59,202 nt of DNA from an uncultured Mycoplasma sp. (GTDB lineage: Bacteria; Bacillota_I; Bacilli_A; RF39; UBA660): positions 1 through 59,202 of the forward strand of contig CAMMXG010000004.1 of assembly GCA_946500895.1 (NCBI GenBank), in the 5' to 3' direction. The notes under the pieces were generated by a model. The model saw only the letters and a program-made list of their open reading frames with translations. It did not search any database and had not been told where the DNA came from. Each line of letters starts with the position of its first letter. The stretch's first letter is position 1. Shown one piece after another: positions 5,722-56,558 of this stretch. The position numbers and the translations under genes are program-made.

Positions 5722-6120
5722 TTAACAAACATTATTAGAATCATTTATATGAACGTATACTTGATTGTTCTTTAAATATAGTATTATACTCATATCATTT
5801 ATTGATTCATTATTAATTGGGTTTAATACATTATCATCTTTATCTGGTGATAAAGCACCACTTTCAACTAAATCATTTACTGTAATTATTAGACTTTTAT
5901 AACCATCATAAAAGGTTGTACTATTATTTAGTTCATATTCATATCCTACTGCATAAGTTTTAGCGGCACTTTCAATCATTTCTAATTTTGCACAATATAA
6001 ATTTTCTTTTGATGCATTAGTTAAATTCACAATACTTGCACTAGCAATGGTTGTTACAACAGCAAGTATAGCAATTACACATAAAAGTTCTATTAATGTA
6101 AACCCTTTTTTATTTTTCAT
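5722..6120 (-). CDS. prepilin-type N-terminal cleavage/methylation domain protein (pseudopilin/ComGC-like)
   Basis: MKNKKG|FTLIELLCVIAILAVV is a classic class III signal peptide (G-FTLIE). The start at 6120 is chosen over 6129. Confidence 0.75.
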   Translation of the reverse strand: MKNKKGFTLIELLCVIAILAVVTTIASASIVNLTNASKENLYCAKLEMIESAAKTYAVGYEYELNNSTTFYDGYKSLIITVNDLVESGALSPDKDDNVLNPINNESINDMSIILYLKNNQVYVHINDSNNVC

Positions 6121-6157
6121 ATCTAACACCCTATTTTTATTGTATCAAAATCATAAT

Positions 6158-6193
6158 ATAAAAAGTAGTTATCTTATCAAAAAGATAACTACT
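6158..6193 (-). terminator. strong intrinsic terminator between the 434-aa gene and the pilin-like gene
   Basis: AGTAGTTATCTT / AAGATAACTACT perfect 12-bp stem, followed by TTTTTAT on the minus strand. Confidence 0.8.
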
Positions 6194-6206
6194 ATTGACG
6201 TTTAGT

Positions 6207-7511
6207 TTACGCTTCAACAATTGTATATGGGTCTGAAGTTGTTCCTGAACCAGAAAACAAAGTATCTGCTTTTATATTGATTACAGGTCTTACACCAGAA
6301 GAATTATTAACTTGCCACCCATCAAAATAGCCAGTAGATTTCATTGAAAAAACACTAGTTGGATAAGGCGCAGGATTAAACCAGAATGGTGTCATTGTCC
6401 AATAATCTTGTTGATTATATAAATAAAAGCCTGTATTCATGCTTCCATATACATTACCAGCAAATACTAATTCATCGGCTGTAATTAATCCCAATGTTAC
6501 TTTTATAATATCATTCTCTTCGCACAATAAAGTAGGTCCCGCGGATCCTATATAATTCATTAATCTTCCTAAAGCTGCATAATCTATTCTACTACTTGGC
6601 ATACTATTCCAAGTGTATCCATTCGAAACATTTCGATCACTACAAAATCCTATATCGTTATCAACATACCTATCATATACATTTAAGTTACTAGTACTAT
6701 ACCACGTTTGGAGAGTATTAAGAACTGAACTATTACTTGTTTGTCCATGTTGTTGACCAATAGAATATTTTAATCCAACATATTCGCTTCTATTATAATT
6801 ATTATTAAAAATATATTCAGTTTCATTGTTTATCATAGTCTCAATGCCGGTTGTTTCTGTGCTAGGTCCATTATAAATCATTCTTACACTACCGTTACCA
6901 TTAATTCTTATGATTCGCCAATAAAATTCGCCAAATCGAACCCAATTATTAGTAATTGTTCCTCTAAAATAGTAACTTTTATTGCCTGTCCAATCTTTTG
7001 CTGAATACACACCATTAGTTGATTCATCACATACACCTGCACAACTCGTATTACTAAAGTTAGGTGTTCCGGTATCTATATCATATTTTTTAATAATTTC
7101 TAGCATTGTATTTCCAATTATATTTTTATCAAAATATAAATAACATTTACTTCCTTTTTGCAAATTAGCTATAACGTGCTCTCCATCGGCATTGGTATAC
7201 AATTTAGCATTTGTATCATTATTTACATTATCAATTGTACAATAACTTAATTCTTCATTAATAGTATAACCATTACTAGGCATCACATTTACAGCTTCAT
7301 ATTCTCCGTTATCATTTTCTTGATATATTGCCATTACTTTAAAATCATATGGAGTATAATTAATTGTTCCATTAACTAAAGGGATTGACTGTGTTGTTCT
7401 ATATTTTGCTCTTGTAAAATTTAGTATTACTGCACTAATTACTGCTATTACAACTACTCCTATTAATATATTTCTTTTTACATGACTTCTCTTTAACACT
7501 TCAAATTGCAT
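6207..7511 (-). CDS. N-terminally membrane-anchored extracellular protein of unknown function (paralog of 51542..52858)
   Basis: Single N-terminal TM segment. Blocks shared with the paralog: NFT(R/K)AKYR.TQSIPLVNGTINY, FYWRIIRINGNGS, YWTMTP, GVRPVINIKAD...DPYTI. The tail resembles WxLRSP...GVRPA modules of DUF6273-type proteins (tentative). Confidence 0.6.
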   Translation of the reverse strand: MQFEVLKRSHVKRNILIGVVVIAVISAVILNFTRAKYRTTQSIPLVNGTINYTPYDFKVMAIYQENDNGEYEAVNVMPSNGYTINEELSYCTIDNVNNDTNAKLYTNADGEHVIANLQKGSKCYLYFDKNIIGNTMLEIIKKYDIDTGTPNFSNTSCAGVCDESTNGVYSAKDWTGNKSYYFRGTITNNWVRFGEFYWRIIRINGNGSVRMIYNGPSTETTGIETMINNETEYIFNNNYNRSEYVGLKYSIGQQHGQTSNSSVLNTLQTWYSTSNLNVYDRYVDNDIGFCSDRNVSNGYTWNSMPSSRIDYAALGRLMNYIGSAGPTLLCEENDIIKVTLGLITADELVFAGNVYGSMNTGFYLYNQQDYWTMTPFWFNPAPYPTSVFSMKSTGYFDGWQVNNSSGVRPVINIKADTLFSGSGTTSDPYTIVEA

Positions 7512-7584
7512 ATTTTTTTCTCCTTTATGAAGTATAGCTTCATTTATTTTTTAAAAATATTTGACTATATTAATTCTATATAAT

Positions 7585-7632
7585 ATAGCAATTTGCTATT
7601 TTTATCATTTTAATTATATAGCATTTCGCTAT
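7585..7632. promoter_or_regulatory. two palindromic operator-like sites ATAGCA-N4-GCTAT in the divergent intergenic region
   Basis: ATAGCAATTTGCTAT (7585-7599) and ATAGCATTTCGCTAT (7618-7632), centres 33 bp apart, between gene starts at 7511 and 7689. Confidence 0.5.
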
Positions 7633-7688
7633 ATATGTCAATATAACAATTTGTTTTAAATTAAAATGTAAAATATGGAGGTCGAAAT

Positions 7689-7937
7689 ATGAATGAAGAT
7701 ATAAGATATGAAAGATTAAAAGGTCTTAGAGAAGATAGAGATTTGTTGCAAAAAGATGTTGCTAAAGTCTTGAATGTTACTCAAGTGGCCTACAGTTGCT
7801 ATGAAATTGGAAGAAGACAAATTCCAGTTGAGGCTTTGATTAAATTATCTTTATTTTATAATACTAGTGTTGATTATCTATTGGGTTTAACTGATGAGAG
7901 AAAGCCTTATCCTAAAAGTATTTTAAGTAAAAAATAA
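7689..7937 (+). CDS. XRE-family HTH transcriptional regulator
   Basis: LLQKDVAKVLNVTQVAYSCYEIGRRQIPVEALIKLSLFYNTSVDYLLGLTD. GGAGG lies 7 nt upstream and a hairpin AAATAGCT/AGCTATTT follows the stop. Confidence 0.8.
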   Translation: MNEDIRYERLKGLREDRDLLQKDVAKVLNVTQVAYSCYEIGRRQIPVEALIKLSLFYNTSVDYLLGLTDERKPYPKSILSKK

Positions 7938-7962
7938 ATAGCTGTATTAGCTATTTAACTTC

Positions 7963-7991
7963 TTGATAAAAAATTAAAAATATCATATAAT
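7963..7991 (+). promoter_or_regulatory. consensus sigma-A-type promoter firing antisense into the small-peptide gene
   Basis: TTGATA (7963-7968), 17-nt spacer, TATAAT (7986-7991). Confidence 0.5.
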
Positions 7992-7997
7992 ATACAT

Positions 7998-8240
7998 GTA
8001 AGTGTTATTCACTTGGTGGATAACACCTACTTTATCGGTAAGCGCTATGCCTTAGGCTAGCGTCTTTTCTTTTGCTCTTCTCTAATAATAGAGATAAGCA
8101 AAATTATTATAATAAGCAATAGTTTCGTATCACTCATTTGCATCCCCTCCTACTTTCGTAAAAACCCCCTGAACACTCAGTAGTTTAAACTACTAATAAA
8201 AAAGAAAGCAGGCGCTACCACCAGTTAAATAACGGTTATT
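7998..8240 (+). ncRNA. predicted antisense RNA overlapping the 26-codon peptide gene (3' end undefined)
   Basis: Inferred only from the promoter at 7963-7991. There is no ORF of note on this strand. The 5' hairpin is at 7998-8030. Confidence 0.3.
8057..8137 (-). CDS. 26-aa hydrophobic peptide MSDTKLLLIIIILLISIIREEQKKRR (type I toxin-like small membrane protein)
   Basis: ATG lies 8 nt after GGAGG (8141-8150 region). One TM-length hydrophobic run plus a charged tail. It has its own promoter and a long leader, and is below the ORF-track size cut-off. Confidence 0.5.
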   Translation of the reverse strand: MSDTKLLLIIIILLISIIREEQKKRR

Positions 8241-8241
8241 T

Positions 8242-8285
8242 ATTATGAGTGATAATACCAGAAAAATCAAGAAAAACAGTTCGAC
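8242..8285 (-). promoter_or_regulatory. promoter with upstream GTCGAAC box (locus A)
   Basis: Minus strand: GTCGAAC (8285-8279), 8 nt, TTGATT (8270-8265), 17 nt, CATAAT (8247-8242). Confidence 0.55.
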
Positions 8286-8307
8286 AAAAAACGACAAAAG
8301 CAAGAGT

Positions 8308-9885
8308 TTATTTTCTCTTGCTATTTATATAATCTTCTAATTTTGATTCAGTTATTTCGTTTGTTACTCCCTCACCTGTATTTGGATACTTACTAGAATA
8401 ATAAAAGTCAAAAGCTATTAAACTTACTAGGATAATACACACGATTATCTTCAATTTTTTACTTACTTTATCTAATAGATTTCCTATAATTGGAGCAACG
8501 ATATAAGTTATTAATATTCCACCAGTTGCAAATAGCAACAATCCTTCTAGACATACCCTACCATTTATATTTAAGAAATATCCATGATAATCCCACCATG
8601 ACATACGGTGAACTAACTCTAAATATACACTGGTACCATATTCAATGATGCCACTTACAAGCATGGCTAAAACAAAATAGGCAAATGGATTTTTTCTTAC
8701 CGGTTTCAGTAAAACGAGCATTGCTACGCCACCAGCTCCCCATATTGGTAGCCAAGGCCCTTGAAGTGTTCCTCTTTTTACTATTTCACCATATTGGAAT
8801 AAATGTAGTAAAACTTCAAATATATAGCCAAATATAGCAACGATAAAGAAGATTAAAATTATGTCGGTTATAGAATATTTGCGATTATAATTAAATTTTA
8901 GCCAATGATGTTTAGATTCTTTGAGCATATATTCGTAAAGTGGATATTCCTCAAAAACAATCTCACCTTCTAAATTATTATCTTTTAATAATTCAGCATT
9001 TTGGATCCCTTTTGTTTTAGAAATATCTCTTATAAACATATAACTTTCAGCTTTTGTCGCATTTATATATGGTGTTGCAAAAACGAGATTAGAAATATTT
9101 AATGTTAGTACACCTAATAAATAGTAACCAATAAATGACAAATCCAATTTAAACATTTCCCATTTATAACCATTCATCATATCTCTGGATAATTTTAAAA
9201 CATCTTTTGTTTTCATATTGGGGTTTTCGGCTAAAATATAGGGAACTAAATAATATGAATAATATTTTATAAATCCACCTATTATGGTAAATCCCCAAAG
9301 AATTGTATATAAATTTTTTAAAAACATCGTGTATGCTACGTGAGTTGTTTTACCTAGTCTATATGGTAAAACTAATTTATTAGCTTTTGTTTTCGTAAAT
9401 CGTCTATTTTCTAAGAAAAATCTGGCATTTCCTACTTCTATTACTTTACTTACAAATATCCAATAAAGCAAAGCTATTAGGGCACCTATAATAATGATTA
9501 CACTGGCCCAAATACGGTCTTTAAATAATGCTTGATTAATAGCATTCAAAATACCAAATAAGAAACTTCCTGATTTTGATACATTATTTACTAAAGATCC
9601 TAAAACGCCACGAGTAGCGTTTTGAAAAAACTCTGGTTCTTCTTTTTGTTCTCCATTTAAACCATTTAAAAATTCATTTACAATATCTGAATTGGTATCG
9701 GCATCAATGTTGTTGATATCGATATTTTTTATATTATCACGATAGTCAAAGTCTAATTCTTTATTTAAAGTTATTACTGTTCCTCCGACTAAAATCGTGT
9801 AGATAAAACAAATAATGATACAAGATTTCCAATTTCGATAAAAAGCACTTTTTCCTTGCCTTTTTAAAGATTTCCTGCTAAACAT
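8308..9885 (-). CDS. polytopic membrane protein (DUF975-like N-terminal half; C-terminal multi-TM domain)
   Basis: MFSRKSLKRQGKSAFYRNWKS... is typical of DUF975-type proteins as I recall, with many TM segments. Start uncertain (9885 or 9918). Terminator hairpin AGCAAGAG/CTCTTGCT at 8299-8322. Confidence 0.5.
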   Translation of the reverse strand: MFSRKSLKRQGKSAFYRNWKSCIIICFIYTILVGGTVITLNKELDFDYRDNIKNIDINNIDADTNSDIVNEFLNGLNGEQKEEPEFFQNATRGVLGSLVNNVSKSGSFLFGILNAINQALFKDRIWASVIIIIGALIALLYWIFVSKVIEVGNARFFLENRRFTKTKANKLVLPYRLGKTTHVAYTMFLKNLYTILWGFTIIGGFIKYYSYYLVPYILAENPNMKTKDVLKLSRDMMNGYKWEMFKLDLSFIGYYLLGVLTLNISNLVFATPYINATKAESYMFIRDISKTKGIQNAELLKDNNLEGEIVFEEYPLYEYMLKESKHHWLKFNYNRKYSITDIILIFFIVAIFGYIFEVLLHLFQYGEIVKRGTLQGPWLPIWGAGGVAMLVLLKPVRKNPFAYFVLAMLVSGIIEYGTSVYLELVHRMSWWDYHGYFLNINGRVCLEGLLLFATGGILITYIVAPIIGNLLDKVSKKLKIIVCIILVSLIAFDFYYSSKYPNTGEGVTNEITESKLEDYINSKRK

Positions 9886-9969
9886 ACTACTACCCCAATC
9901 ACAAAATAATTTTATCATATATTTTTATATTCTTCAATTATTCTAATCTATTGATATATTACAATTTTG

Positions 9970-10830
9970 TTATTTTGCAGTAATGTCACCACTTGTGGTA
10001 GTGATTGTTAAAATAGGATTAGTATTTGAATTATTAATATCTATATCACCACTATTTGTTTTGGCATCAATAAATACTTTATTACCTAAATTAATATCAA
10101 TATTTCCACTTCTTGCTTCTAAAGTGGAATCTTCTTTGATTGCTAATTTATTAATTTCAATATCGCCACTTGTTGTACTTCCATTTATTTTATTTGTAAT
10201 TTCATCAATTTCAACATTTCCACTAGTTGCACTTAAAGTGATATTATTTACTTTACCAACTATAATATCACCACTCGTAGAATTTACATTTAATTCTTGG
10301 GCATTGTCTATCTTTATATTACCACTTGTTGAATTTACTTCACCATTTTCTAACCCTTTTAAAGTGATATCTCCACTTGTTGTTTTGATATTTCCACTTG
10401 TTAATACATCCTCTGCTTCTAATGACCCAGATGAAGACGTATGATCATATTCTATGTTGTAATCAGCTGGCACATAAATTGTAATCACCTCATCATATAA
10501 ACATAAACCGATACAAATAATAGATTCTTCTTGGTTTATTTCTAAATTGTTTTCTGTTTGCTCCACTTTTATCTTATCTTTATTTTTACTACTTCCCGTA
10601 ATTTCTACTTCTATACTATCTTCTTTTGTTTCTTTTATCTTTACATCATAACTTTTTACATTTACAGAAATGCTCGTAATATCATTAAATTCTTCATTAT
10701 ATAAAGTAGTTGTTTTTTCTAGAAAAGAAAAATTTCCACCTCTTACTACTCCAAATACAATAACAGCAATTAAAGCAATAATTATGATAATTAATATGAT
10801 GATGCTTATCATTATTTTTTTATTTTTCAT
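9970..10830 (-). CDS. DUF4097-like putative adhesin/beta-helical repeat protein with N-terminal TM anchor
   Basis: Repeated (T/N)SGDI / TSGN(I/V) units about every 20 aa after an N-terminal TM segment. Overlaps the upstream HTH gene by 11 nt. Confidence 0.6.
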   Translation of the reverse strand: MKNKKIMISIIILIIIIIALIAVIVFGVVRGGNFSFLEKTTTLYNEEFNDITSISVNVKSYDVKIKETKEDSIEVEITGSSKNKDKIKVEQTENNLEINQEESIICIGLCLYDEVITIYVPADYNIEYDHTSSSGSLEAEDVLTSGNIKTTSGDITLKGLENGEVNSTSGNIKIDNAQELNVNSTSGDIIVGKVNNITLSATSGNVEIDEITNKINGSTTSGDIEINKLAIKEDSTLEARSGNIDINLGNKVFIDAKTNSGDIDINNSNTNPILTITTTSGDITAK

Positions 10831-11419
10831 TTTTGTTTCCTCCTAACATTTTAATTAATTTAACAATTTGCATTACTAAAATGCCAATAATGAAGATAAT
10901 CCAAGAATACGCCCAAGCATGCCAAATAAAACTTACTAAAAAATAAATAATCGTCGTTCCTAAAAAAATAATTTTATTCATTATCTTTCCTTGTTTGTCT
11001 TCTTTCTTTTCGCTTTCTTTAGACATAAAATAATAAATTAATAATACTCCTATTAATACAAGTCCAAACATGATAATAGAACCAATGATTCCTTCATTTA
11101 CATCTAACTCTTCTAATAACATGGTTAAAATAATCATGATGCCAAAAATAATTAAACATAAAGAGAAAGTTAAAGCTTTATTTTTCTTTTTTTCTTTGCT
11201 TAATTTTCTTTCGTAAACGATGTCGCGCCCTTTTAAAAATTCATCTGTTGATATTTCAAAAAAGTTACATAAAGGAACAATTTTATCAATATCAGGATTT
11301 GATTCTCCTGTTTCCCATTTAGAAATGGTTTGTCTTGAAACATTCAAAATACTTGCTAAATCTTCTTGACTTAAATTTTTCTTTTTTCTTAAATTATAGA
11401 TTTTTTCACCTATATTCAT
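10820..11419 (-). CDS. membrane-bound XRE-family HTH regulator
   Basis: N-terminal LSQEDLASILNVSRQTISKWETGESNP followed by about 4 TM segments. Confidence 0.7.
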   Translation of the reverse strand: MNIGEKIYNLRKKKNLSQEDLASILNVSRQTISKWETGESNPDIDKIVPLCNFFEISTDEFLKGRDIVYERKLSKEKKKNKALTFSLCLIIFGIMIILTMLLEELDVNEGIIGSIIMFGLVLIGVLLIYYFMSKESEKKEDKQGKIMNKIIFLGTTIIYFLVSFIWHAWAYSWIIFIIGILVMQIVKLIKMLGGNKNEK

Positions 11420-11518
11420 TTTCTCACCTCGGTTTCCATCTTATCAAATTTAGTGGTTGCGCTCTACCAATTAGACTTGGAAATGTCGCAACTAAAGTTT
11501 ACACTTTTAAAAAAGAGG

Positions 11519-12637
11519 CTATTTTTCCTCTAGTTTCTGTGCCAAATTTAAGGCTTGCTCAATAATTTTATCCATATCATAATATTTGTATAATCCTAGG
11601 CGTCCACCAAAAAACACATTATCTTCTTTTTCAGCTAGAGCATGATATTTTTCATATAATGAATTATTTTTATCATCATTGATTGGATAATAGGCAATAG
11701 AATCTTCAGTATATGCTTTTGGATATTCTTTTGTTATAATGGTGCCTTTACAATCATTCATCTCAAAATGTTTATGTTCAATAATTCTTGTATATGGAGT
11801 TTTGCTATCAGTATAGTTGATAACAGCATTTCCTTGATAATTATCTACTTCTTCTAATATTTCCGTTTTAAATTCAAGACTACGATATTCTAATTTTCCT
11901 AACTTAAATTCAAAATATTCATCGATTCCGCCAGTATAAATTACTTTATCTGCTAGAGAATTGTAATAATCTTTTTTCTCTAAATAATCAGTATTTAATT
12001 TTACTTCGCTTTTCTTCAACATTTTTTCGATAATACTTGTGTATCCTCCGATTGGTATTCCTTGATAATAATCATTAAAATAATTATTGTTAAAAGTAAA
12101 TCTTACTGGTAATCTTCTAATAATAAAAGCTGGTAAATCAATACATTTTTTTCCCCATTGTTTTTCTGTATATCCTTTTACTAGTTTTTCATAAATAGTT
12201 TTTCCTACTAAACTAATTGCTTGTTCTTCTAAATTAGTTGGTGTTTTATCTTTAAATTCTTCTTTTTCTTCTTCAATTCGTTTTATCGCATCATTTGGTG
12301 TTATCACATCACTCCAAAGTTTCGTAAAAGTATTCATATTAAATGGTAAATTATAAAGTTCACCATTAAAGTTAGCAATTGGCGAATTAATAAAATTGTT
12401 GAATTTAGCAAACTGATTGATAAATTTCCATATATCTTCATTTGAAGTATGGAATATATGAGCGCCATACTTATGAACATTAATACCATTTATGTTTTCC
12501 GTATATATATTACCACCAATGTGATTTCTTTTTTCTAAAACTAACACTCTTTTATTTTTCTTGGTTAGTTCATAAGCAAGTACTGAACCATACAAACCAG
12601 AGCCAACAATTAAATAATCATATTTTTTATTCATCAT
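11519..12637 (-). CDS. glf: UDP-galactopyranose mutase
   Basis: N-terminal FAD fold YDYLIVGSGLYGSV, plus GGNIYT, VHKYGAHIFHT and FFGGRLGLYKYYDMD. Start approximate. Confidence 0.9.
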   Translation of the reverse strand: MMNKKYDYLIVGSGLYGSVLAYELTKKNKRVLVLEKRNHIGGNIYTENINGINVHKYGAHIFHTSNEDIWKFINQFAKFNNFINSPIANFNGELYNLPFNMNTFTKLWSDVITPNDAIKRIEEEKEEFKDKTPTNLEEQAISLVGKTIYEKLVKGYTEKQWGKKCIDLPAFIIRRLPVRFTFNNNYFNDYYQGIPIGGYTSIIEKMLKKSEVKLNTDYLEKKDYYNSLADKVIYTGGIDEYFEFKLGKLEYRSLEFKTEILEEVDNYQGNAVINYTDSKTPYTRIIEHKHFEMNDCKGTIITKEYPKAYTEDSIAYYPINDDKNNSLYEKYHALAEKEDNVFFGGRLGLYKYYDMDKIIEQALNLAQKLEEK

Positions 12638-12712
12638 AACCACCTTAACATTATTTTAACATATTTTAATAAAAGAAAAAACAACTTTAAAGAGTTGCTT
12701 CAAATCACTATT

Positions 12713-12799
12713 TGGTGCAGGAAAAGAGATTTGAACTCTCACGAATGAAAATTCACTACCCCCTCAAAGTAGCGCGTCTACCTATTCCGCCATTCCTGC
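12713..12799 (-). tRNA. tRNA-Leu (anticodon GAG), type II with long variable arm, CCA encoded
   Basis: Acceptor GCAGGAA/TTCCTGC, anticodon loop TTGAGGG, T-loop GTTCAAATC. Confidence 0.85.
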
Positions 12800-12847
12800 A
12801 TATCCCTATTATAAAGCAAAATTAGAAAAAAGGAAAGCCTTTTTTAT

Positions 12848-12996
12848 CGGCACTTTTAGGCATTTTTTAGGGCACTCGTCTAATTTTTAACTATTTAACA
12901 TTACCTTTTCTCAATTCAAAAAGGTGTTACAAAGTATCACAATTTAACATCGTATGGCACCTAATTCGGCACTTTTTTCGGCACCAATTTCGGCAC
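12848..12996. repeat. two clusters of (C)GGCAC iterons flanking an AT-rich spacer (candidate replication origin)
   Basis: CGGCAC at 12848, GGCA at 12859, GGGCAC at 12870 (about 11-bp phase). GGCAC at 12956 and CGGCAC at 12967, 12979, 12991 (12-bp phase). Confidence 0.6.
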
Positions 12997-13104
12997 TCGG
13001 TAAAACACTTCAAATTGTCTATAAAAATCAAGTAAAATATGAGCAAATACAGAGCGAGGAATTTCGTGTTGGAACAAACCAAAATTAAAGATAAGGAGTA
13101 AAAA

Positions 13105-13335
13105 ATGAGAGAAGAATTTAAAAACATGAGGTTTAATATCACAGAGGATATGTATAATACTATGCTTGAAATGTTAGTCATACATCAAATGCTAGAAGAT
13201 TTTAACCCAACTAAAAAAGAAAAGAGAATGCTTAATAAAAAGTTGAAAAACTTGCAATATCATTTTACGTATGAGCTACAACTTCATAACCCCATGCAAA
13301 TACACATTTATAATAAATTTATGAAAGACGAATAG
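13105..13335 (+). CDS. hypothetical small protein
   Basis: AAGGAG lies 6 nt before the ATG. Terminator GATAGG/CCTATC+T5 at 13335-13359. Confidence 0.5.
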   Translation: MREEFKNMRFNITEDMYNTMLEMLVIHQMLEDFNPTKKEKRMLNKKLKNLQYHFTYELQLHNPMQIHIYNKFMKDE

Positions 13336-13389
13336 ATAGGCATGACAACCTATCTTTTTATCTGCTCTAGTACTATATATATGGGGCGA

Positions 13390-13923
13390 TTATTCTTCCC
13401 AAACATTAAATATCGAATCTTCAAATCTTTCATATAATGTTCGGGTTATTTCTGTACCTTTTGCAAATATAAAAGGGTTTATTAAAATACGATAATTGTA
13501 TCCCTCTTTTTCTAATTGTATAATTTCTTTTTCAACTAAGCCATCTATGGCTCTATCAAACGTTTTATCGTTCATTGAGACTATTTCTCGTAAGTCTTTT
13601 TTATATAAATAACCTGCAAACATATTGCATTGGATTTTAATTAAATAACCACTATATTCGCCAAAGCCAATATGGCTTAGCATAGCGAATATAATTTGGG
13701 TTTCGCTACCTGTAAAATGTAACATTGATAATATATCAGTCATTTTACAAAATAACTTAGTAAATGTTATTCTGGGGTTTAGCTTTATATATTGTTTGTT
13801 ATGTTCTATTTGTGCGGCACGTCTAATACGCACCTCGTCGCCTGCATTAATTTCTTTGCATACGTTGAAATCTTTATCAACAATATAACCCTCGTGAGGC
13901 ATTTGTCTTGGTAGTGGTAACAT
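13390..13923 (-). CDS. RepL-like (Firmicute plasmid replication protein family) winged-helix protein
   Basis: 177 aa. The pattern FTKLF..M.DILSML...GSETQIIFAML ... KTFDRAIDGLVEKEIIQ ... ILINPFIFAKG parallels pSN2/pE194-type RepL as I recall it. Confidence 0.45.
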   Translation of the reverse strand: MLPLPRQMPHEGYIVDKDFNVCKEINAGDEVRIRRAAQIEHNKQYIKLNPRITFTKLFCKMTDILSMLHFTGSETQIIFAMLSHIGFGEYSGYLIKIQCNMFAGYLYKKDLREIVSMNDKTFDRAIDGLVEKEIIQLEKEGYNYRILINPFIFAKGTEITRTLYERFEDSIFNVWEE

Positions 13924-14074
13924 ACATCATCAACTCCTTTCTAAAAAAATGTCACACACCTGTAAATAATTCGGACAAAAATGGCTGTTAAAAATAAGCC
14001 ATTTTTTCTTTTAAATAAAGGGGAAACTTACAAAAAAAAGATTTTATCTATCTAATATCTTATTTCAACACTCG

Positions 14075-14422
14075 CTAACACCTCCCGCTAGAGCAGTAAT
14101 CTCTACTAGCATTATACATACAAGTAGGACAATTTCTCTCAAAGCCTTGGTATTCAAGAGCCTTTGTAAATTGACTACCAAACACACCTGAACCAAAACG
14201 TATCTTTGCTATCTCTTCTCTTATGACTTCTCTAACTATCTTTTCTACAAGTTGTTCGAGTTCACTTTTCTCGAACGGCTTGTTTCTTTTGGTATCTTTT
14301 TCTTTCATAGCCTTAACATTGACTTCGTTTATCATTTCAGCAATGTCGTATTCAAGCACTTCGCCAAAGCCTTTCCTAATACTCTCTAAGTCAAACAAGT
14401 CTTTAAACTCGTATTGTCTCAT
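14075..14422 (-). CDS. hypothetical protein with Cys-rich C-terminus
   Basis: Start moved to the ATG at 14422 (GGAGG 8 nt upstream). C-terminal CPTCMYNASRDYCSSGRC. Confidence 0.5.
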   Translation of the reverse strand: MRQYEFKDLFDLESIRKGFGEVLEYDIAEMINEVNVKAMKEKDTKRNKPFEKSELEQLVEKIVREVIREEIAKIRFGSGVFGSQFTKALEYQGFERNCPTCMYNASRDYCSSGRC

Positions 14423-14489
14423 GAATATCGCCTCCATTGATTTTTTTTTACAATTACATTTTAAACGTTTTTGGTACGTTCTGTTATCT

Positions 14490-14654
14490 CTAAACAATTC
14501 TTTTTTTCAAAAATTCTTTGAAATCTTCGTCTTTAACTAAGTACCTACCGCTCAAACGTATAGCAGGAAGATGTCTATCACGAATTAGCTTTTGGATAGT
14601 CTTAACGTTAATTCCCGTCATGCAACTTATTTCCTTAGTGGAATAAAATTTCAT
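14490..14654 (-). CDS. excisionase/MerR-like HTH_17 family DNA-binding protein (54 aa, absent from ORF track)
   Basis: MKFYSTKEISCMTGINVKTIQKLIRDRHLPAIRLSGRYLVKDEDFKEFLKKRIV. GGAGG lies 9 nt upstream. Confidence 0.65.
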   Translation of the reverse strand: MKFYSTKEISCMTGINVKTIQKLIRDRHLPAIRLSGRYLVKDEDFKEFLKKRIV

Positions 14655-14925
14655 GTACTCACACCTCCTAGGACTTATATTCCTTTGCCCTTACTTGTTA
14701 GGAGTGAAAAGGCGGCTGCACTCCACTAAAAGAACCGCAAAAAAACAAGCCTGTTAAATAAGCCTGTTTTAGCCTTTTAGAGAGACAAATATCCGAGAGC
14801 ATATAATCAATGTTATGGAAAGAAAAATGCACCCACGTATGACTACTCAAAGAATAATCAGTACAATGGGGGCATAGTTTTGTGGTTTTTCTCTTGACTT
14901 TCTTGAAAAAGGTGCGGTTGTTCCT

Positions 14926-15678
14926 TTACTCACTTTGTGTTTTCAATTTGCACATAGTAAATAGATACAATAATATTGGAATAATAATTCCACACGATAC
15001 TCCAATATCCATACTCCTTGATAGCCCATAATTTCCAAGTGCTAATATAGTTATCATCGAGCAAATAATTAGTACATATGCAAATTTGCTTTTATAACCA
15101 AGTTTGTTTAATATGTTAATGCCTATATAAGGAAGTATATATAGTATAATTGATATTACACAATCCCTAAGAAAATCATTAAAATTCTCATTGTTTCTAA
15201 AATCGAAACAAAGATAAATGGTAAACATTACAATAGCGGCAGATAATATAATAATAGCTATATCATATTTATTTATTGCTTTGGTTGGTGGATTATATAA
15301 AATCATTTCTGAAAGAATAAAGAATAAACATATCATAACTTCTAAGTCCCCATAGCCAAATAATATATCATAAACACCATATAATGCTATGCCTATTATA
15401 AGAATTAAAAATATAAAAAAGGAATATTCTCTTTTTAATTTTAATTGCAAATATAATAAAATAGCAGTAACACAAGTAATAATTTTCATCAATATTGATA
15501 ATGAACTTAACAACGTAGCTACACAAACTAAAATGATTAGCCCTATTAAAATATAATCGAATATTCCCATATTTATTGTACTCTCATTTGTTGTTTGAAG
15601 TTCGATACCGCAATGAGGACATTCTGTTGCAGTATCACTTACTTTTTTACCACATTCTTTACATTTAATTAATGCCAT
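14926..15678 (-). CDS. zinc-ribbon domain protein with polytopic membrane domain
   Basis: MALIKCKECGKKVSDTATECPHCG followed by about 7 TM segments. Start ATG 15678 (or GTG 15687, overlapping the upstream stop). Confidence 0.6.
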   Translation of the reverse strand: MALIKCKECGKKVSDTATECPHCGIELQTTNESTINMGIFDYILIGLIILVCVATLLSSLSILMKIITCVTAILLYLQLKLKREYSFFIFLILIIGIALYGVYDILFGYGDLEVMICLFFILSEMILYNPPTKAINKYDIAIIILSAAIVMFTIYLCFDFRNNENFNDFLRDCVISIILYILPYIGINILNKLGYKSKFAYVLIICSMITILALGNYGLSRSMDIGVSCGIIIPILLYLFTMCKLKTQSE

Positions 15679-15683
15679 ATCTA

Positions 15684-16208
15684 TCACTCTTTCTCATACA
15701 TATCTCCATCACTTTCTCTTAGGCTATTTCCAACTATTGTAAATCTTTTCAAAACTTCGCCATCCGAGTAAACCCTTAAAGTATTTCCGCTTCTTTCATA
15801 AGTACAATCAAAAGTTATCGCACCTGTATAATAAGAACAAGTCTTATCTTTATACAATGTTATACTACTTCTGAAAGTATATCCATATCTCGTACTTTCA
15901 TGAACGTAAGTTCCCTCAAGTGAAGATGTGCTAAATATAAAGATAATCGCTACCACAAGTATTATTGCAACAATACCAATAATTATCTTTTTCTTTTTAT
16001 CAAGATGGTTAATAATATTTTTTCCCTTTATTTTTTCTTTCAAAAGATTATAACCACATTCAGGACAAACTTTGCTATCAGCTTTGACTTTTTCTCCACA
16101 TTCAGGGCATTCTGTTTTTAATTCTTCGTTTGGTGCTTTACATTTGGGACAGGCCTTTGCTTTATCGCTTATATCTGCGCCACATTCACTGCATTTAATT
16201 AATGCCAT
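15684..16208 (-). CDS. double zinc-ribbon, single-pass membrane protein
   Basis: MALIKCSECG...CPKC then CPECG...CPECG, one TM segment, and an approximately 80-aa extracytoplasmic domain. Confidence 0.6.
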   Translation of the reverse strand: MALIKCSECGADISDKAKACPKCKAPNEELKTECPECGEKVKADSKVCPECGYNLLKEKIKGKNIINHLDKKKKIIIGIVAIILVVAIIFIFSTSSLEGTYVHESTRYGYTFRSSITLYKDKTCSYYTGAITFDCTYERSGNTLRVYSDGEVLKRFTIVGNSLRESDGDMYEKE

Positions 16209-16268
16209 TTTTACCAACTCGCTTTCTTTGTATTATATAAACTTTTATAATTTCTTTCTCTGTTTTGT

Positions 16269-16688
16269 TTATATCTTTTTACATACCACAGTATCAGAAT
16301 ATAGTGTTGAGCCAAATTTTCTTAGAACTATCGTAGAAAGACTATCGCTAAAATAAATCTTGTTGTTGACGAAAGAATAATCTCCGCTTTCGGAACTCCA
16401 ATCAAATAAATCTCCTAATGAATAGCTATCGCCATAATATAATCGTAAAGGAAATGTTTCTCCTACATATTCAGAGCTAACAAATTTACATTCATATTCG
16501 CCATCAACATCTCCAAAGAAGATAATGTTTATAAAAATGGCAAAAATCACTATAATCACACAAGCGATTAAACACCAAAACCACCATTTCTGATAAACTT
16601 TAGGTTTTGGTATATCAATACTTGCGCCACAATTAGGACAAATAGTAGCATTGTTTTTTACTTCTTTTCCACATTCACTACATATCAT
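16269..16688 (-). CDS. zinc-ribbon, single-pass membrane protein
   Basis: MICSECGKEVKNNATICPNCG, one TM segment, and a C-terminal domain of similar size to the neighbour's. Confidence 0.6.
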   Translation of the reverse strand: MICSECGKEVKNNATICPNCGASIDIPKPKVYQKWWFWCLIACVIIVIFAIFINIIFFGDVDGEYECKFVSSEYVGETFPLRLYYGDSYSLGDLFDWSSESGDYSFVNNKIYFSDSLSTIVLRKFGSTLYSDTVVCKKI

Positions 16689-16890
16689 TTATATCTTCCT
16701 TTCTTTTTACTTAATGTTTTCCCACCAACTAATATCATATGAATAATTAAATGTTACGAAGTTTGTATGTATTGTTCTTTTTAATAAATTTGTTGAGCCA
16801 TATTTATTAAGAGATAACATTTAAAATTCTTGATAATTATTTTACCCAATCCCTATCTATCATTTATAAAGTTTAGAGTGTACTATGGTT

Positions 16891-17316
16891 TTATACAATA
16901 CTATTACCATGAGCATCTTTATTGATAGAGCCTGCAAGAATTAAAATAAATTCTACAAAAGCCCAAATTCCAGAAACAAGCGGTCCCAAGAAAAGCAATA
17001 TGCAACCAATTGTTCCTAATAATAATTGTGCGACAGCTTTACCTGTGTAACCTAAGTAAAAATTGTGTGCTCCAAATACTCCTAAGAAGAACGCAAGTAA
17101 TGCCGCACATACTTTGCTTTTAGCACCATTAGCAATTGCTTGATTATGATTAGTTCCAAAACTACATCCACAATTAGGACACATTATAGCCTTTGAACTT
17201 AATTCTTTTCCACAGTCAGGACATAACATTGTTTTGTTTTCTGTACCACATTTAGGGCAAAATTTTGCTTTATCACTCATCTCTGCTCCACATTCCTTAC
17301 ATTTAATTAACGCCAT
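16891..17316 (-). CDS. double zinc-ribbon + TM2-domain membrane protein
   Basis: MALIKCKECG...CPKCG, CPDCG...CPNCG, then AFFLGVFGAHNFYLGYTGKA... typical of a TM2 domain. Confidence 0.65.
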   Translation of the reverse strand: MALIKCKECGAEMSDKAKFCPKCGTENKTMLCPDCGKELSSKAIMCPNCGCSFGTNHNQAIANGAKSKVCAALLAFFLGVFGAHNFYLGYTGKAVAQLLLGTIGCILLFLGPLVSGIWAFVEFILILAGSINKDAHGNSIV

Positions 17317-17423
17317 TTTCTCAAACTCCTTTCTTGATTTATATTATAACACAAAACCCCACCTATTGGTAGGGGTATTTGTTCGTGAAAATATAAGATA
17401 ATAATTAAAAAGGCAGGTGGAAT

Positions 17424-17687
17424 ATGGAACGTTCAAAAGATGATAATAATTACGTTTATTATTGGGTAGGTAAAAATATTAGAAAGCAAAGAAAATTAAA
17501 AGGTTGGACACAAAGAGAACTTGCCGAGAAGTGTAGCTTTAGTGAAAATTTTATAGGAGATTTAGAGAATGAAACATTTAAAACTTGTTCTTTAAATACT
17601 TTATATCATATTTCTAAAGTACTTGGTGTTCCTTTAAAAGTATTCTTTGAGGAATTAGATGAAAGTGATTTTAAGAAAAAGAAATAG
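17424..17687 (+). CDS. XRE-family HTH transcriptional regulator (divergent from the zinc-ribbon cluster)
   Basis: GWTQRELAEKCSFSENFIGDLEN. Terminator GATATG/CATATC+T6 at 17687-17711. Confidence 0.75.
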   Translation: MERSKDDNNYVYYWVGKNIRKQRKLKGWTQRELAEKCSFSENFIGDLENETFKTCSLNTLYHISKVLGVPLKVFFEELDESDFKKKK

Positions 17688-17883
17688 ATATGCAAAACAC
17701 ATATCTTTTTTATATGCCCTAGTTATATCAACTTTTAGTATTTACTAAATAAAAATTCATTTTATTCTTAGTAATTCAATTGTTGTTTCATATTCCTTTA
17801 ATTTCGATTCAAAATATTATATTATGTCTTTTTTGCATATGATTCTCCTCTCTTTAAATATTAAAAAGTCAAGTTATCCTTGA

Positions 17884-19038
17884 CTATATTCCACTTGTTA
17901 TAAATTTTAAACTTTGTTTTAAATAATCTAAAAATCCAGCTTTTTCAATATCTTCTTTTATAATTATTTCGGCTTCATCTATTATATTTCCATTACTATC
18001 GATAATTTCAGCAGTTCCAACAATGGTTCCTGCTTTTATTGGAGCAGTTATTTTGTCTACTTTAATGTTAAATGAATAATTTGTTGGTTTTTCTGTTACA
18101 CTTAATATTTCCGTTGCATCTTCTTTTAGATACACTTCTACTTCTTTTATTTTTCCTTTTTCTACCGGTATTGTTCCTAAAGCTTTATCTTTGCTGTAAA
18201 TGATATTGCTTTTAAAAGAATTAAAGCCATAAGACAGAAGTGTTGATGTATCACTGCTTCTTGCTTCTGCACTTGGAGATTTCATAACAACGCTAATTAA
18301 ACGTAAATCATTTTTCTTGGCTGTTGCAGTTAAGCAATACCCTGCTTCGGTTGTATATCCGGTTTTTAGCCCATCTACTCCATCATAAAATCTTACTAAT
18401 CTATTTGTGTTTACTAACCAAATCTGGGAACCATCTGGTTTGGTTAAATAATCTTCATAAATTGATGTATACTTTAATATATCTTCATGTTTCAATAATT
18501 CTTTTGCCATCAGAGCCATATCATAAGCAGTAGAATAGTGATTTTCATTATCTAAACCATGAGGATTAGCAAAATTCGTATTCTTAAGACCTAACTCACT
18601 TGCTCTTTTGTTCATTAATTCAACAAAAGCATCTACACTTCCACTTATCTTTTCGGCCATAGCTACCACTGCATCATTGGCACTAGCAATAGCAATACAT
18701 TTTAGCAAACTATCAACTGTATACTCTTCTCCAGCTTGTAAAAATACTTGAGACCCACCCATACCACTTGCATTTTCACTAATTAATACTTTATCATCAT
18801 ATTTTAATGAGCCATTTTCAATATTTTCCATAATTAGTAGCATACTCATAATTTTGGTCATACTTGCCATTGGTAGTTTCTCATCAATGTTTTTTTCATA
18901 TAATATTTTACCGCTTTCTGCATCCATTAATATGGCACTTTCACTATTCAAGTTAAGAGAATCTCCTTCCGCATGGACAGTTGGAAGAAAAAAGCAACTG
19001 ACAAGTATGATGATGAATATTTTTTTCAAATTAAACAC
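17884..19038 (-). CDS. D-alanyl-D-alanine carboxypeptidase (PBP5 class)
   Basis: Signal peptide, SMTKIMS (SxxK), SAND (SxN) and KTGYT (KTG), plus a C-terminal PBP5_C-like domain. Confidence 0.9.
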   Translation of the reverse strand: MFNLKKIFIIILVSCFFLPTVHAEGDSLNLNSESAILMDAESGKILYEKNIDEKLPMASMTKIMSMLLIMENIENGSLKYDDKVLISENASGMGGSQVFLQAGEEYTVDSLLKCIAIASANDAVVAMAEKISGSVDAFVELMNKRASELGLKNTNFANPHGLDNENHYSTAYDMALMAKELLKHEDILKYTSIYEDYLTKPDGSQIWLVNTNRLVRFYDGVDGLKTGYTTEAGYCLTATAKKNDLRLISVVMKSPSAEARSSDTSTLLSYGFNSFKSNIIYSKDKALGTIPVEKGKIKEVEVYLKEDATEILSVTEKPTNYSFNIKVDKITAPIKAGTIVGTAEIIDSNGNIIDEAEIIIKEDIEKAGFLDYLKQSLKFITSGI

Positions 19039-51542: not shown

Positions 51543-52858
51543 TAGGCGGTTGCTATGACATAAGGATTTGAACTAGTACCATCACCACTAGAAATGGTAA
51601 CATCTGCTTTTAGGTTGATGACTGGTCGGACGCCATATCCGTTGCTTAATTCCACATTTGTACTATCAAGGTCGCCATTCGCATCTACAATGAATACAAG
51701 AGCATTATTATAATAATTAGATGGAGACATAGTCCAATAGTATTGTCCTGTATATAGATAATAACTTGTATTATTTATATCCCATACTCCTCCAGCATAG
51801 GCTACTTCATCTGCCGTAATTAATCCGATTGGATATTGCAAGGCTTTATTCCCTTTACTTGCATTACTTATTGTGAACAAGTCTCTATTATTGGTACATT
51901 CAAAGGTTGGCTGTTTATTTTTGTATAGTCTGATATATCCTGCGTAGTATGTTGTTGTTGAGCCTGTTCCTCCTTGGTTATTAGTACTGCTACTACTTGT
52001 ACTTGGTTGTCTATCATTGCAGAATCCTGCATTTGTATCGATATCGTCGGCATAATTTGCTAGATTACTTGAGTACCAGTTATTTAGTACCCCAAGTATC
52101 GTACTGTTGGTTCCTGTTCCATGTACATTATTGTTTGTATATTTAAATCCTACATAAGCATTATCATTATATGAACTATTGAACGCACTTGTTCTTATTT
52201 GCATTTCTGTTCCGGTTGCAGTTGCACTGTTTCCCTGATAAATTAATCTTATTGTGCCATCACCATTAATACGTATTATTCGCCAATAGAAATTAGCAAA
52301 ATATACCCAGTTATCGGTCGGATTTCCTGCAAAGTAATATACTTCGCCATCATTATCATACTGTCTTTCGTCTAATGATTTATATATTGTTCCGGTTGTT
52401 GTATTTGTTATAGTGGTACTAAAATCACTTCTTGTTAAAACTGTTGGATAATTTGATAATAAGATATCTTTCATTAAAGGTATATATTCCACAAAATCTA
52501 AATAACATTTTGTTCCTTTTGTAGTAAATGGTGTTACATTTAATGTTTTTGTATTACTATCATAGTTTATAGTTATATTTCTATCTTTTTCACCATTTAC
52601 AGTACAATAACTATTTTCAGTTAATTTATAATTACCATCTGGGATACTATCTACATTTTCTCCATCTACAGTGATAGCAACAATATTTAAGTCTGCCAAA
52701 CTATAATTTATTGTTCCATTAACAAGTGGTATTGATTGTGTAACTCTATATTTTGCTTTTGTAAAGTTTAGTATTACTGCACTAATAATTAGTATTGTTA
52801 CTACTCCTATAATAATATTTCTTTTTAAATGACTTTTCTTTAATGTTTCAATCTTCAT
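51542..52858 (-). CDS. N-terminally membrane-anchored extracellular protein, paralog of 6207..7511
   Basis: Same N-terminal 50 aa and the same FYWRIIRINGDG, YWTMSP, GVRPVINLKAD...NPYVI blocks. The central region differs and carries an STSSSSTNNQGGTGSTTT low-complexity run. Confidence 0.6.
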   Translation of the reverse strand: MKIETLKKSHLKRNIIIGVVTILIISAVILNFTKAKYRVTQSIPLVNGTINYSLADLNIVAITVDGENVDSIPDGNYKLTENSYCTVNGEKDRNITINYDSNTKTLNVTPFTTKGTKCYLDFVEYIPLMKDILLSNYPTVLTRSDFSTTITNTTTGTIYKSLDERQYDNDGEVYYFAGNPTDNWVYFANFYWRIIRINGDGTIRLIYQGNSATATGTEMQIRTSAFNSSYNDNAYVGFKYTNNNVHGTGTNSTILGVLNNWYSSNLANYADDIDTNAGFCNDRQPSTSSSSTNNQGGTGSTTTYYAGYIRLYKNKQPTFECTNNRDLFTISNASKGNKALQYPIGLITADEVAYAGGVWDINNTSYYLYTGQYYWTMSPSNYYNNALVFIVDANGDLDSTNVELSNGYGVRPVINLKADVTISSGDGTSSNPYVIATA

Positions 52859-53015
52859 AATCTAACACCTTTCATGATGCTAGGCTTCATTTTAAATACC
52901 ATTAAAATTATCTATCATAGATATATGATAAGTTTCCTAGCTTATAGTTAAATTATAAATATAGCTAGATAAAAAGTCAAGAAAAATGTGTTATTCCCCT
53001 GTGTAAAACTTTTTT

Positions 53016-53032
53016 TAACAATATTATTGTTA
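53016..53032. promoter_or_regulatory. palindrome TAACAAT-N3-ATTGTTA just upstream of the dual-HTH gene
   Basis: Perfect 7-bp arms, 20 nt before the ATG at 53053. Confidence 0.45.
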
Positions 53033-53052
53033 GAATTATTTTGGTGATAAAA

Positions 53053-53505
53053 ATGAAATTTGATAGAATGTTAGAATTAAGAGAAGAAAATAATTTGTTA
53101 CAAAAAGATATAGCTAGCATTTTAAATATATCTGTTGGTACGTATGCTATGAATGAAGAAGGACACGATACTATTACTTTAAAAAATTTAATTAAGTTTT
53201 GTGATTATTTTAATATTTCAATTGATTTTATATTTGGCTTTGCTAATGATAGAAAATATGAAAATTATCAATTAAATTTTAATCCAGAAGTGTTACGTTT
53301 AAGAATTAAAGAAGTCAGAAAAGAAAATAAATATACTCAAGTAATGATTGGAAATTTTTTAAATATCGACCATTCGGTATGGTGTCGATATGAACAAGGA
53401 AAAACAATTATTCCCACTACTTTCCTTTATGAGTTTTGTAATAAATTTTCTGTTAGCGCCGACTACCTCTTAGGTAAAATTGATAGTCCTAAATACCTTA
53501 AATAA
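53053..53505 (+). CDS. XRE-family regulator with two tandem HTH domains
   Basis: LLQKDIASILNISVGTYAMNEEG... and a second unit YTQVMIGNFLNIDHSVWCRYEQG... ATG after GGTGA. Terminator CCTTA/TAAGG+T8 at 53496-53519. Confidence 0.8.
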   Translation: MKFDRMLELREENNLLQKDIASILNISVGTYAMNEEGHDTITLKNLIKFCDYFNISIDFIFGFANDRKYENYQLNFNPEVLRLRIKEVRKENKYTQVMIGNFLNIDHSVWCRYEQGKTIIPTTFLYEFCNKFSVSADYLLGKIDSPKYLK

Positions 53506-53546
53506 CTAAGGTTTTTTTTATTATTTTCGACAAATCGTCGAATTTT

Positions 53547-53590
53547 GTCGAACGCTTTTTCTTGCTTTTTAAAGTACCATCATTCATAAT
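53547..53590 (+). promoter_or_regulatory. promoter with upstream GTCGAAC box (locus B)
   Basis: GTCGAAC (53547-53), 8 nt, TTGCTT (53562-67), 17 nt, CATAAT (53585-90). The box is part of the inverted repeat TTCGACAAA...TTTGTCGAA. Confidence 0.55.
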
Positions 53591-53596
53591 AAAGTC

Positions 53597-53831
53597 TTGA
53601 GCATTAGGCCTGGTGTCTACCAGATAATTCCTGCTATTTGTCTACCTCCTTACCTCTTGAGGTTTTGGTTGATAAACAATAGAAAGGGTTGTGTGGTTAG
53701 TATGAGGAAGTTGTTCCAAATACTTATATCGTGGTTTAGACCAAAAAAGACATCAACCACTATTATTGTGCAAAACAATATAGAGGTTAATGTCTACTCC
53801 AATAACAAGTAGGCATTTAGTCCTAATGCTC
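53597..53831 (+). ncRNA. structured leader/small RNA between the locus B promoter and the helicase gene
   Basis: 10-bp 5'-3' closure GAGCATTAGG (53599-608) / CCTAATGCTC (53822-31), hairpin CTGGTgtctACCAG, and ACCTC/GAGGT helix over a possible SD. Confidence 0.35.
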
Positions 53832-53882
53832 TACTAAATTAAGTTTAACATATTTATAATAAAATAACAAGATGGAGTTTAA

Positions 53883-56499: not shown

Positions 56500-56558
56500 A
56501 AACATCACATGAGTATTATACTTAAAATTTGTTCTTTTGTAAATAAAAGGACTACAAA

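Follow-up and report, generated by a model that had tools for sequence, protein, structure and literature searches.

A truncated islet at a tRNA-Leu(GAG) gene of an uncultured Mycoplasma sp. is likely the integrase-distal half of a tRNA-targeting integrative element

We analyzed a 59,202-nucleotide (nt) stretch of DNA from contig CAMMXG010000004.1 of an uncultured Mycoplasma sp. (the window, whose positions serve as coordinates throughout), in which a group of small genes and repeats, here called the islet or the window copy, lies beside a tRNA-Leu(GAG) gene. A first-pass annotation had described at 12800-14660 the tRNA gene, a set of repeats, four small open reading frames (ORFs) and further direct and inverted repeats, all of which were found where it had placed them, and had suggested that the islet was either a decayed integrated plasmid or satellite or a minimal element mobilized in trans by a helper. 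Our comparisons with related genomes indicate that the islet is wider than this and is likely the integrase-distal half of a ~10-kb tRNA-targeting integrative element, the integrase half of which was later lost.

The tRNA-Leu(GAG) gene (12713-12799, minus strand) scored 50.1 bits with Rfam, which detected nothing else over 12000-18200, and no other tRNA-Leu(GAG) gene was found in the assembly (71% complete). Adjoining it, the left end of the islet (12800-12920, plus strand) contains a TATAAT motif at about 12808-12813, ~8 nt upstream of the tRNA 5' end, and a first set of three GGCAC-type repeats at 12849, 12859 (GGCAT) and 12871. These are followed on the same strand by four GGCAC repeats with an exact 12-nt period (12956-12996; starts at 12956, 12968, 12980 and 12992); 6 of the 34 GGCAC copies in the window fall within 148 base pairs (bp), on one strand only (Poisson P about 5e-10). 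Just downstream of the array lies a promoter-like site (13009-13038) for p76, a conserved small protein of 76 amino acids (aa) (13105-13335, plus strand). Its gene is convergent with that of p177 (13390-13923, minus strand), a divergent winged-helix protein of the RepL superfamily and a putative replication initiator of 177 aa, and the gap between the two genes holds a bidirectional terminator-like hairpin (13334-13355). Also on the minus strand are p115 (14075-14422), the conserved Cys-tailed partner of p177 with a C-terminal CxxC, and xis54 (14490-14654), a DNA-binding protein of the HTH_17/excisionase family with 54 aa, whose gene heads the xis54-p115-p177 unit. The length of 115 aa for p115 is counted from an ATG behind a GGAGG; the longest ORF there has 140 aa from a TTG (p140). 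In agreement with the first-pass annotation, a Pfam search of 12 ORFs across 10.8-17.7 kb found no recombinase, relaxase or capsid family; PHROGs and NCBIfam were applied to p76, p177, p140 and xis54 only.

Comparison with other genomes of the genus showed that the islet is an insertion. In the window, the tRNA-Leu(GAG) gene and a penicillin-binding-protein (PBP) gene (17884-19038) are 5084 bp apart, and the insert between them is about 5.0 kb long (~12800-17833); in the same-genus genome G138, the tRNA and the PBP orthologue are separated by 68 bp. A survey of the locus in 16 same-genus genomes (G138 and 15 others) found the tRNA and PBP genes separated by less than 90 bp in eight, gaps of 284 and 672 bp in two and other genes there in three; the locus was cut by contig ends in two, and one genome, G210, alone had the same truncated islet. 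Empty sites, which the first-pass annotation had proposed to look for, are therefore present in the genus, and the alternative that it had named, a core gene order without such sites, clearly does not describe the locus. Because the insert spans the whole gap between the tRNA and PBP genes, the islet also takes in the zinc-ribbon genes at 14926-17316 and the regulator gene hth87, so that the interval of 12800-14660, although its features are present, was too narrow. Searches for p177 in 43 other same-genus genomes found no copy, and those in 200 genomes from other genera of the family found it in six.

The right edge of the insertion was defined by the same comparison. From 17834 onward, the window aligns with the native spacer of five same-genus empty-site genomes, starting from the last 3-4 nt of the tRNA 5' end. 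This spacer (17834-17883), which in the native arrangement joins the 5' end of tRNA-Leu to the PBP gene, begins in the window with TGC, the end of what would have been the displaced 5' half of the host tRNA. In G210, which is a different species-level genome and the closest relative at that level, an hth87 that is 98.9% identical and zinc-ribbon genes lie beside the PBP gene, and at the junction (L056, G210:C77, 2653-2713 compared with window 17718-17858) a further ~140 nt are gone, which indicates that the relic is common to two species-level genomes and has eroded further in one of them. We did not find p177 in G210; the assembly of this genome is 70% complete, and the contig in question breaks off within the islet.

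Full siblings of the islet were found both in the same genome and elsewhere. On contig C1 of the same genome, positions 52085-56622 match window 12920-17755 (93% identity over 2051 nt, 94% over 709 nt and 88% over 449 nt), and the C1 copy runs on into genes for p257, p387, p114, p89, a 96-aa HTH_17 protein and a 375-aa tyrosine integrase; p257, p387, p114 and p89 had no Pfam or PHROGs match. The C1 element measures 9.6 kb (L009, G000:C1:46000-65999, 5860-15553), and its ends are the two halves of a host tRNA-Arg(CCT) gene, split at the anticodon loop and sharing the common core CCTCCTAAGCAA. It carries its own intact tRNA-Arg(CCT) gene (L009 5953-6029), and no other was found in the assembly. 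The search of the rest of the genome for an integrase, which the first-pass annotation had recommended, thus yielded an enzyme that targets tRNA-Arg(CCT).

A second full element with the same gene order and an integrase 70% identical to that of C1 lies in the complete chromosome of an uncultured Bacilli bacterium (L036). This element is integrated in tRNA-Leu(GAG), with a displaced tRNA 5' half (L036 899-945) on the integrase side and an intact tRNA-Leu(GAG) gene at the p177 end, its 5' end towards the element. The left end of the window copy (12796-12960) aligns with L036 11143-10979 and with L035 (72.6% over 168 nt, E 8e-18) and is not similar to the native sequence upstream of the tRNA in G138, and because of this homology we assign the window copy to the tRNA-Leu(GAG)-type members of the family. 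By analogy with L036, the element-derived part of the window tRNA would be its 5' half (about 12762-12799) together with the upstream promoter region. The position of the islet on the 5' side of the tRNA, which the first-pass annotation had correctly singled out as unusual, is explained by this arrangement, since an element of the Leu type brings the tRNA 5' half and the TATAAT motif and displaces the host 5' half.

Other relatives differ in the target and in the recombinase. The relative in tRNA-Arg(TCT) (L037, 4757-11159) has the usual 3'-half arrangement; it lacks an integrase, keeps both att ends and could be mobilized in trans. A fragment of the gene for p257 lies immediately beside its tRNA-Arg(TCT) 3' half and two GGCAC copies. 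A more distant relative in G192 (L048/L054) has the same backbone, in which a 534-aa large serine recombinase replaces the tyrosine integrase. The genes for xis54, p115, p177 and p76 are kept together in relatives down to 30-38% identity, with either type of recombinase, and the anticodon stem-loop is the common target of the family, which keeps the target tRNA functional in three ways, by supplying a 3' half, a 5' half or a whole replacement gene. Two wider searches added little: a scan of metagenome contigs returned one short relative only, of 1.5 kb, and a scan of viral contigs returned distant p177 relatives only (26-32% identity) and none of the neighboring genes.

Measured against these full elements, the window copy has neither an integrase nor an integrase-adjacent Xis, and p257, p387, p114, p89 and the second att site are missing as well. 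Its homology to the C1 copy extends no further than 17755, a point that coincides exactly with the stop codon of the p257 gene there. The tRNA-Leu core GCGCTACTTTGAGG has a single exact occurrence in the window, at 12762-12775, no GGCAC cluster is present in the window near the right junction, and the assembly yielded no further integrase of the element type. Local alignments of the two window junctions with each other or with the C1 att regions gave nothing beyond the shared left end, and local alignments of 17756-17884 found nothing matching in eight related loci. With one att site and no recombinase, the islet is unable to excise by site-specific recombination. Together with the empty sites and the siblings that have an integrase, this bears out the decayed integrated mobile element of the first-pass annotation.

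Integration of an element of this family is carried out by its tyrosine integrase, with recombination at the anticodon loop of a tRNA gene. Elements of the Leu(GAG) lineage supply a new tRNA 5' half and promoter, and the host 5' half is moved to the integrase end. In the simplest reading, a later deletion in situ, of about 4.5-5 kb, would have removed p257, p387, p114, p89, the integrase-adjacent Xis and the integrase, and the same event would have taken the integrase-side arm sites and nearly all of the displaced tRNA fragment. Still present are the intact xis54-p115-p177 unit, p76, the Cro/CI-type regulator, the zinc-ribbon membrane proteins and the GGCAC arrays, and the putative deletion scar would be the 78 nt at 17756-17833. 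The insertion, its homology to full elements, the parts that it lacks and the relationship of p177 to the RepL superfamily are demonstrated by our comparisons, and the deletion in situ, the function of the repeats as arm sites and that of p177 as an initiator are inferred.

Several observations weigh against parts of this account. All of the ORFs retained in the islet are intact, a comparison of p177 with its C1 allele gave a dN/dS of 0.23, indicating purifying selection, and the two copies in the genome are 100% identical at 12970-13319 and 14218-14767; together, these make the islet look maintained rather than simply decaying. The 78 nt of the putative scar matched nothing in anything that was compared, the window retains nothing of the integrase-side module, and just 3-4 nt of the displaced tRNA half are recognizable, the 7-nt match TGCATAT being one that could be due to chance. 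A cognate integrase may lie elsewhere in the genome, as the assembly is only 71% complete. As to the roles proposed for the retained parts, Pfam recognized no arm-binding domain in the sibling integrase, no replication origin was located in the islet, p177 had no match to RepL (PF05732) at E <= 0.1 (the Pfam cut-off being 20.3 bits), and the best matches of p177 residues 56-158 among solved structures were generic winged helices (Z <= 7.7).

The family of p177 was recovered through its homologues. A word-indexed search found seven close homologues, and tblastn found no match in a plasmid collection (72,556 records) or a phage collection (50,697 records). A profile of the p177 homologues retrieved 246 cluster representatives (E <= 1e-3). 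Among 100 aligned members, family assignments at E <= 0.01 were to RepL for 28, to phage replication protein O for 13, to DnaD_N for six and to Rep3_N for three, and at E <= 1e-4, RepL was assigned to 12 of 94 members, all above the 20.3-bit cut-off. An hhalign comparison of eight close p177 relatives with 11 of those 12 RepL-passing proteins gave a probability of 99.9% (E 3.7e-31, 152 columns). The AF2 model of p177 (pLDDT 93.2) is a winged helix; Foldseek found no match among solved structures at E <= 0.001, the best being MarR-type regulators at ~1e-2 and an entry titled 'Structure of initiator' at 1.6e-2, and among predicted viral structures the best labelled matches were replication proteins (plasmid replication initiation protein, replisome organizer and RepL). 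On this evidence from sequence profiles, we regard p177 as a divergent member of the RepL superfamily, most likely one that initiates replication of the excised element. The earlier description of this protein as RepL-like is thus supported by profile-profile homology and not by direct HMM score, and of the two HMM assignments that had been anticipated, HTH_17 was obtained for xis54 and RepL PF05732 was not obtained for p177.

Known RepL proteins (PF05732), which occur on small Firmicute plasmids of the pSN2 type, are similar to p177 in size (a 164-position model compared with 177 aa) and share with it the winged-helix fold and full-length profile-profile homology to cut-off-passing proteins. 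In contrast to them, p177 itself is below detection and sits in a chromosomal integrative element rather than a plasmid. RepL is included among the winged-helix replication initiators that are listed in a 2026 preprint (10.1101/2024.09.03.610885).

The GGCAC arrays, which the first-pass annotation had called iterons, could be either binding sites for the integrase or part of an origin. Were they origin iterons bound by p177, the islet would essentially be an integrated RepL-type replicon; the four copies with a fixed 12-nt period, lying about 400 nt from the p177 gene, fit this idea, as does the place of p177 in the winged-helix superfamily of RepL and the phage O N-terminal domain. However, the motif also clusters at the integrase end of three siblings. 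In the C1 element, four copies lie beside p76 and three directly after the integrase stop codon, 9 kb away; the corresponding numbers for the p76 end and the integrase end are six and two in L036 and four and two in L037. The copies within any one element all have the same direction, and the two clusters come to lie on either side of the core once the circular form is reconstructed, as do the arm-type sites of a heterobivalent tyrosine integrase. Furthermore, the serine-recombinase element (L048/L054) keeps p177 and p76 and has no GGCAC cluster or other tandem array near them, and the arrays are identical in the two copies of the genome even though the p177 proteins are only 80% identical. A search for DnaA boxes in the islet found one single-mismatch site and no cluster. 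Because the clusters occur at both ends of the siblings, are absent with the serine recombinase and have remained identical despite the divergence of p177, we favor the view that they are probably arm-type sites of the integrase; an iteron role appears unlikely, though it is the strongest of the competing explanations. The N-terminal ~60 residues of the C1 integrase, which precede its SAM-like domain, matched no Pfam family, and solved relatives align only from residue 62.

Similar reasoning applies to xis54, which the first-pass annotation had called Xis-like. The protein exceeded the cut-offs of both HTH_17 (PF12728; 41.9 bits, cut-off 27) and TIGR01764 'excise' (41.1 bits, cut-off 28.8), so that its family assignment holds. 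As for a directionality factor acting with an adjacent integrase, the window has no integrase. In the full siblings a different HTH_17 gene adjoins the integrase gene, and in L048 xis54 stays with p115 and p177 beside a serine recombinase; because of these two observations, xis54 is probably a regulator of the xis54-p115-p177 operon rather than an excisionase. The region upstream of xis54 (14701-14778) is a putative operator, with an inverted repeat GGAGTG/CACTCC at 14701-14724 and three AGCCT-type direct repeats, of which two are AAGCCTGTT (14747-14755 and 14760-14768) and the third is the degenerate TAGCCTTTT at 14770. This region is 100% identical in C1, and L036 has AGGCT...AGCCT at the same place.

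The remaining small proteins of the module were less informative. The p76 of C1 is 100% identical to that of the window, homologues in L034, L011/L048 and L013 are 33-47% identical, and Pfam, PHROGs and NCBIfam gave no family match. For p115, a homologue search returned five close relatives only; these have an invariant RNCxxC, and the CxxC pair represents the only conserved cysteines, so that the Cys-tailed character noted earlier is confirmed in part. An AF2 model of p115 from nine sequences was too poor (pLDDT 56.6), and the protein atlas gave no usable match. Between p115 and p177 lies a hairpin, AAAAATGGCT...AGCCATTTTT (13977-14006), within the segment that differs between the two copies of the genome. 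This segment (13320-14120), which takes in p177 and the sequence between it and p115, shows about 84% identity to C1:52485-53280; recombination has homogenized its flanks, and two functional p177 alleles persist.

An alternative to passive decay is that the retained half is kept for the benefit of the host, in that the chimeric tRNA-Leu(GAG) needs the element promoter and related incoming elements may be kept out by the membrane proteins or by p177. The lack of another tRNA-Leu(GAG) in the assembly, the intact ORFs with p177 under purifying selection, and the truncated islet that G210 keeps beside its PBP gene are consistent with such a benefit, but neither G210 nor any of the 43 other same-genus genomes yielded p177, and the argument from the tRNA covers only about 100 bp. 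In addition, PADLOC indicated no defense system among 11 element proteins: four were matched, xis54 (mad1) and hth87 by generic HTH models, and p177 (WH_III-A, E 0.0037) and the TM2 protein (Cas12f, E 0.002) by weak sub-threshold domain matches. We therefore consider a host benefit improbable. A more specific version, which we regard as somewhat less probable still, is that the islet is a captured module, of which one end is indispensable through the sole tRNA-Leu(GAG), and that the intact xis54-p115-p177 unit survives because its p177 allele differs from that of the sibling, an allele that could disturb or exclude the replication of incoming relatives. If true, this would amount to an element-derived immunity or incompatibility function, with flanks that are 100% identical around a p177 cassette that is 16% divergent.

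The second suggestion of the first-pass annotation, a minimal element mobilized in trans by a helper, is very unlikely, and so is the version in which a complete minimal element is excised and moved by the C1 integrase. The islet does share the GGCAC motif with the C1 element, its ORFs are intact, and the integrase-less L037, with both att ends and both repeat clusters, shows that such derivatives may exist in the family. Against this, the window has a single tRNA-Leu core and no repeat cluster near its right junction, and the sibling integrase uses a different core, CCTCCTAAGCAA in tRNA-Arg(CCT). No joint that skips the islet, whether an empty site or a circle, was seen among the five joints listed for contigs of four runs, although contigs drop rare forms and are thus uninformative on excision.

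Assembly error was considered as well, because the genome is metagenome-assembled. The stretch was found in 19 runs from 11 studies among the matches listed, mostly chicken gut metagenomes. A 7573-nt contig of one run (X6) covers 12763-18300 with 53 differing letters, and contigs of two further runs (X1 and X4) bridge the right junction with no differences. Although two copies with 100% identical tracts of 350 and 600 nt in one bin could mislead an assembler, both flanks represent one chromosomal locus that is contiguous in relatives and the contigs of other runs span the islet or its junction, so that a chimera can be dismissed for practical purposes.

The full elements resemble several known systems. 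As in the tRNA-gene genomic islands defined for the Islander database (PMC4383910), an integrase is present in the siblings C1 and L036, their two ends are marked by an intact tRNA gene and a displaced tRNA fragment, and crossover takes place in the anticodon loop. By the criteria given there, these two siblings pass, whereas the window copy, without an integrase and a displaced fragment, would fail the filters. Elements of the Leu type differ from the usual islands in displacing a 5' rather than a 3' fragment, a configuration for which the method, as described there, allows. In tRNA-dependent lysogeny of actinobacteriophages (PMC10865867), a host tRNA gene is likewise split and an intact copy carried, as in the C1 sibling with tRNA-Arg(CCT); the likeness holds for that sibling only, as in the window islet it is a 5' half that restores the tRNA.

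Among tRNA-gene islands, those with a 5' fragment are the rarer configuration. Full elements of the present family are also similar to phage-inducible chromosomal islands and other phage satellites in their size of ~10 kb and their fixed integration site, and in having an int-xis module, a small replication module and a regulator of the Cro/CI type. In contrast to satellites, no packaging, capsid-remodelling or primase-helicase genes were recognized in the C1 sibling and no helper is known, and the window copy is without half of the backbone. No relaxase family was detected by Pfam in the window or in the sibling proteins scanned; oriT was not searched for. Cis-mobilizable elements (CIMEs) are integrase-less relics of integrative elements in streptococci that keep both att sites. 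The window copy is likewise an integrase-less derivative left at the integration site, but both att sites are kept by L037 and only one by the window copy.

Beyond the conserved module, the islet contains genes for four zinc-ribbon membrane proteins of 253, 177, 139 and 141 aa (14926-17316, minus strand), the last with a TM2 domain, which represent variable cargo; homologous but variable sets are present in C1, L036, L037 and L048. Over 15606-17344, the 5' ends of these genes repeat one another at 74-79% identity, and contigs of three runs join 16210 to 17312, indicating that the number and kind of zinc-ribbon genes vary between copies or strains. The last retained element gene is that of hth87 (17424-17687, plus strand), a Cro/CI-type HTH_3 regulator that is 95% identical to the C1 copy. 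The neighboring PBP gene appears, from its SxxK, SxN and KTG motifs, to encode a D-Ala-D-Ala carboxypeptidase-type protein. A 9-codon ORF behind a strong GAGGAG ribosome-binding site (17818-17847, minus strand) lies in the native-spacer alignment near the host gene terminator.

Some further observations concern the siblings. The reconstructed attP core of the C1 element is flanked by an inverted repeat CACCC/GGGTG, and a 35-nt inverted repeat joins the 3' end of the element-borne tRNA-Arg (L009 6021-6052) to the inside of the other att site (15454-15488). Beside this element, comparison of L009 15627-19833 with L026 revealed a 627-aa low-complexity ORF between the tRNA-Arg 3' half and valS that is absent in G138, where the orientation of tRNA-Arg relative to valS is opposite. 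In the serine-recombinase element, L054 3590-5194 and L048 9033-9836 cover the 534-aa recombinase and, abutting the p76 end, a 267-aa remnant of another serine recombinase without the catalytic N-terminus, and beside the element a 727-aa ORF (L048 9878-12061, minus strand) gave a sub-threshold Pfam match to HopA1 (21.4 bits, cut-off 22.7).

Altogether, an islet that was puzzling, being integrase-less and on the 'wrong' side of a tRNA gene, resolves into a known process once its siblings are found. For annotation, the GGCAC arrays are not to be taken as an origin, and p177 widens the recognizable range of the RepL superfamily. The element family, from uncultured small-genome gut Bacilli, is undescribed, although the kind of element is known, and its members show that one element backbone can carry either a tyrosine or a serine recombinase.

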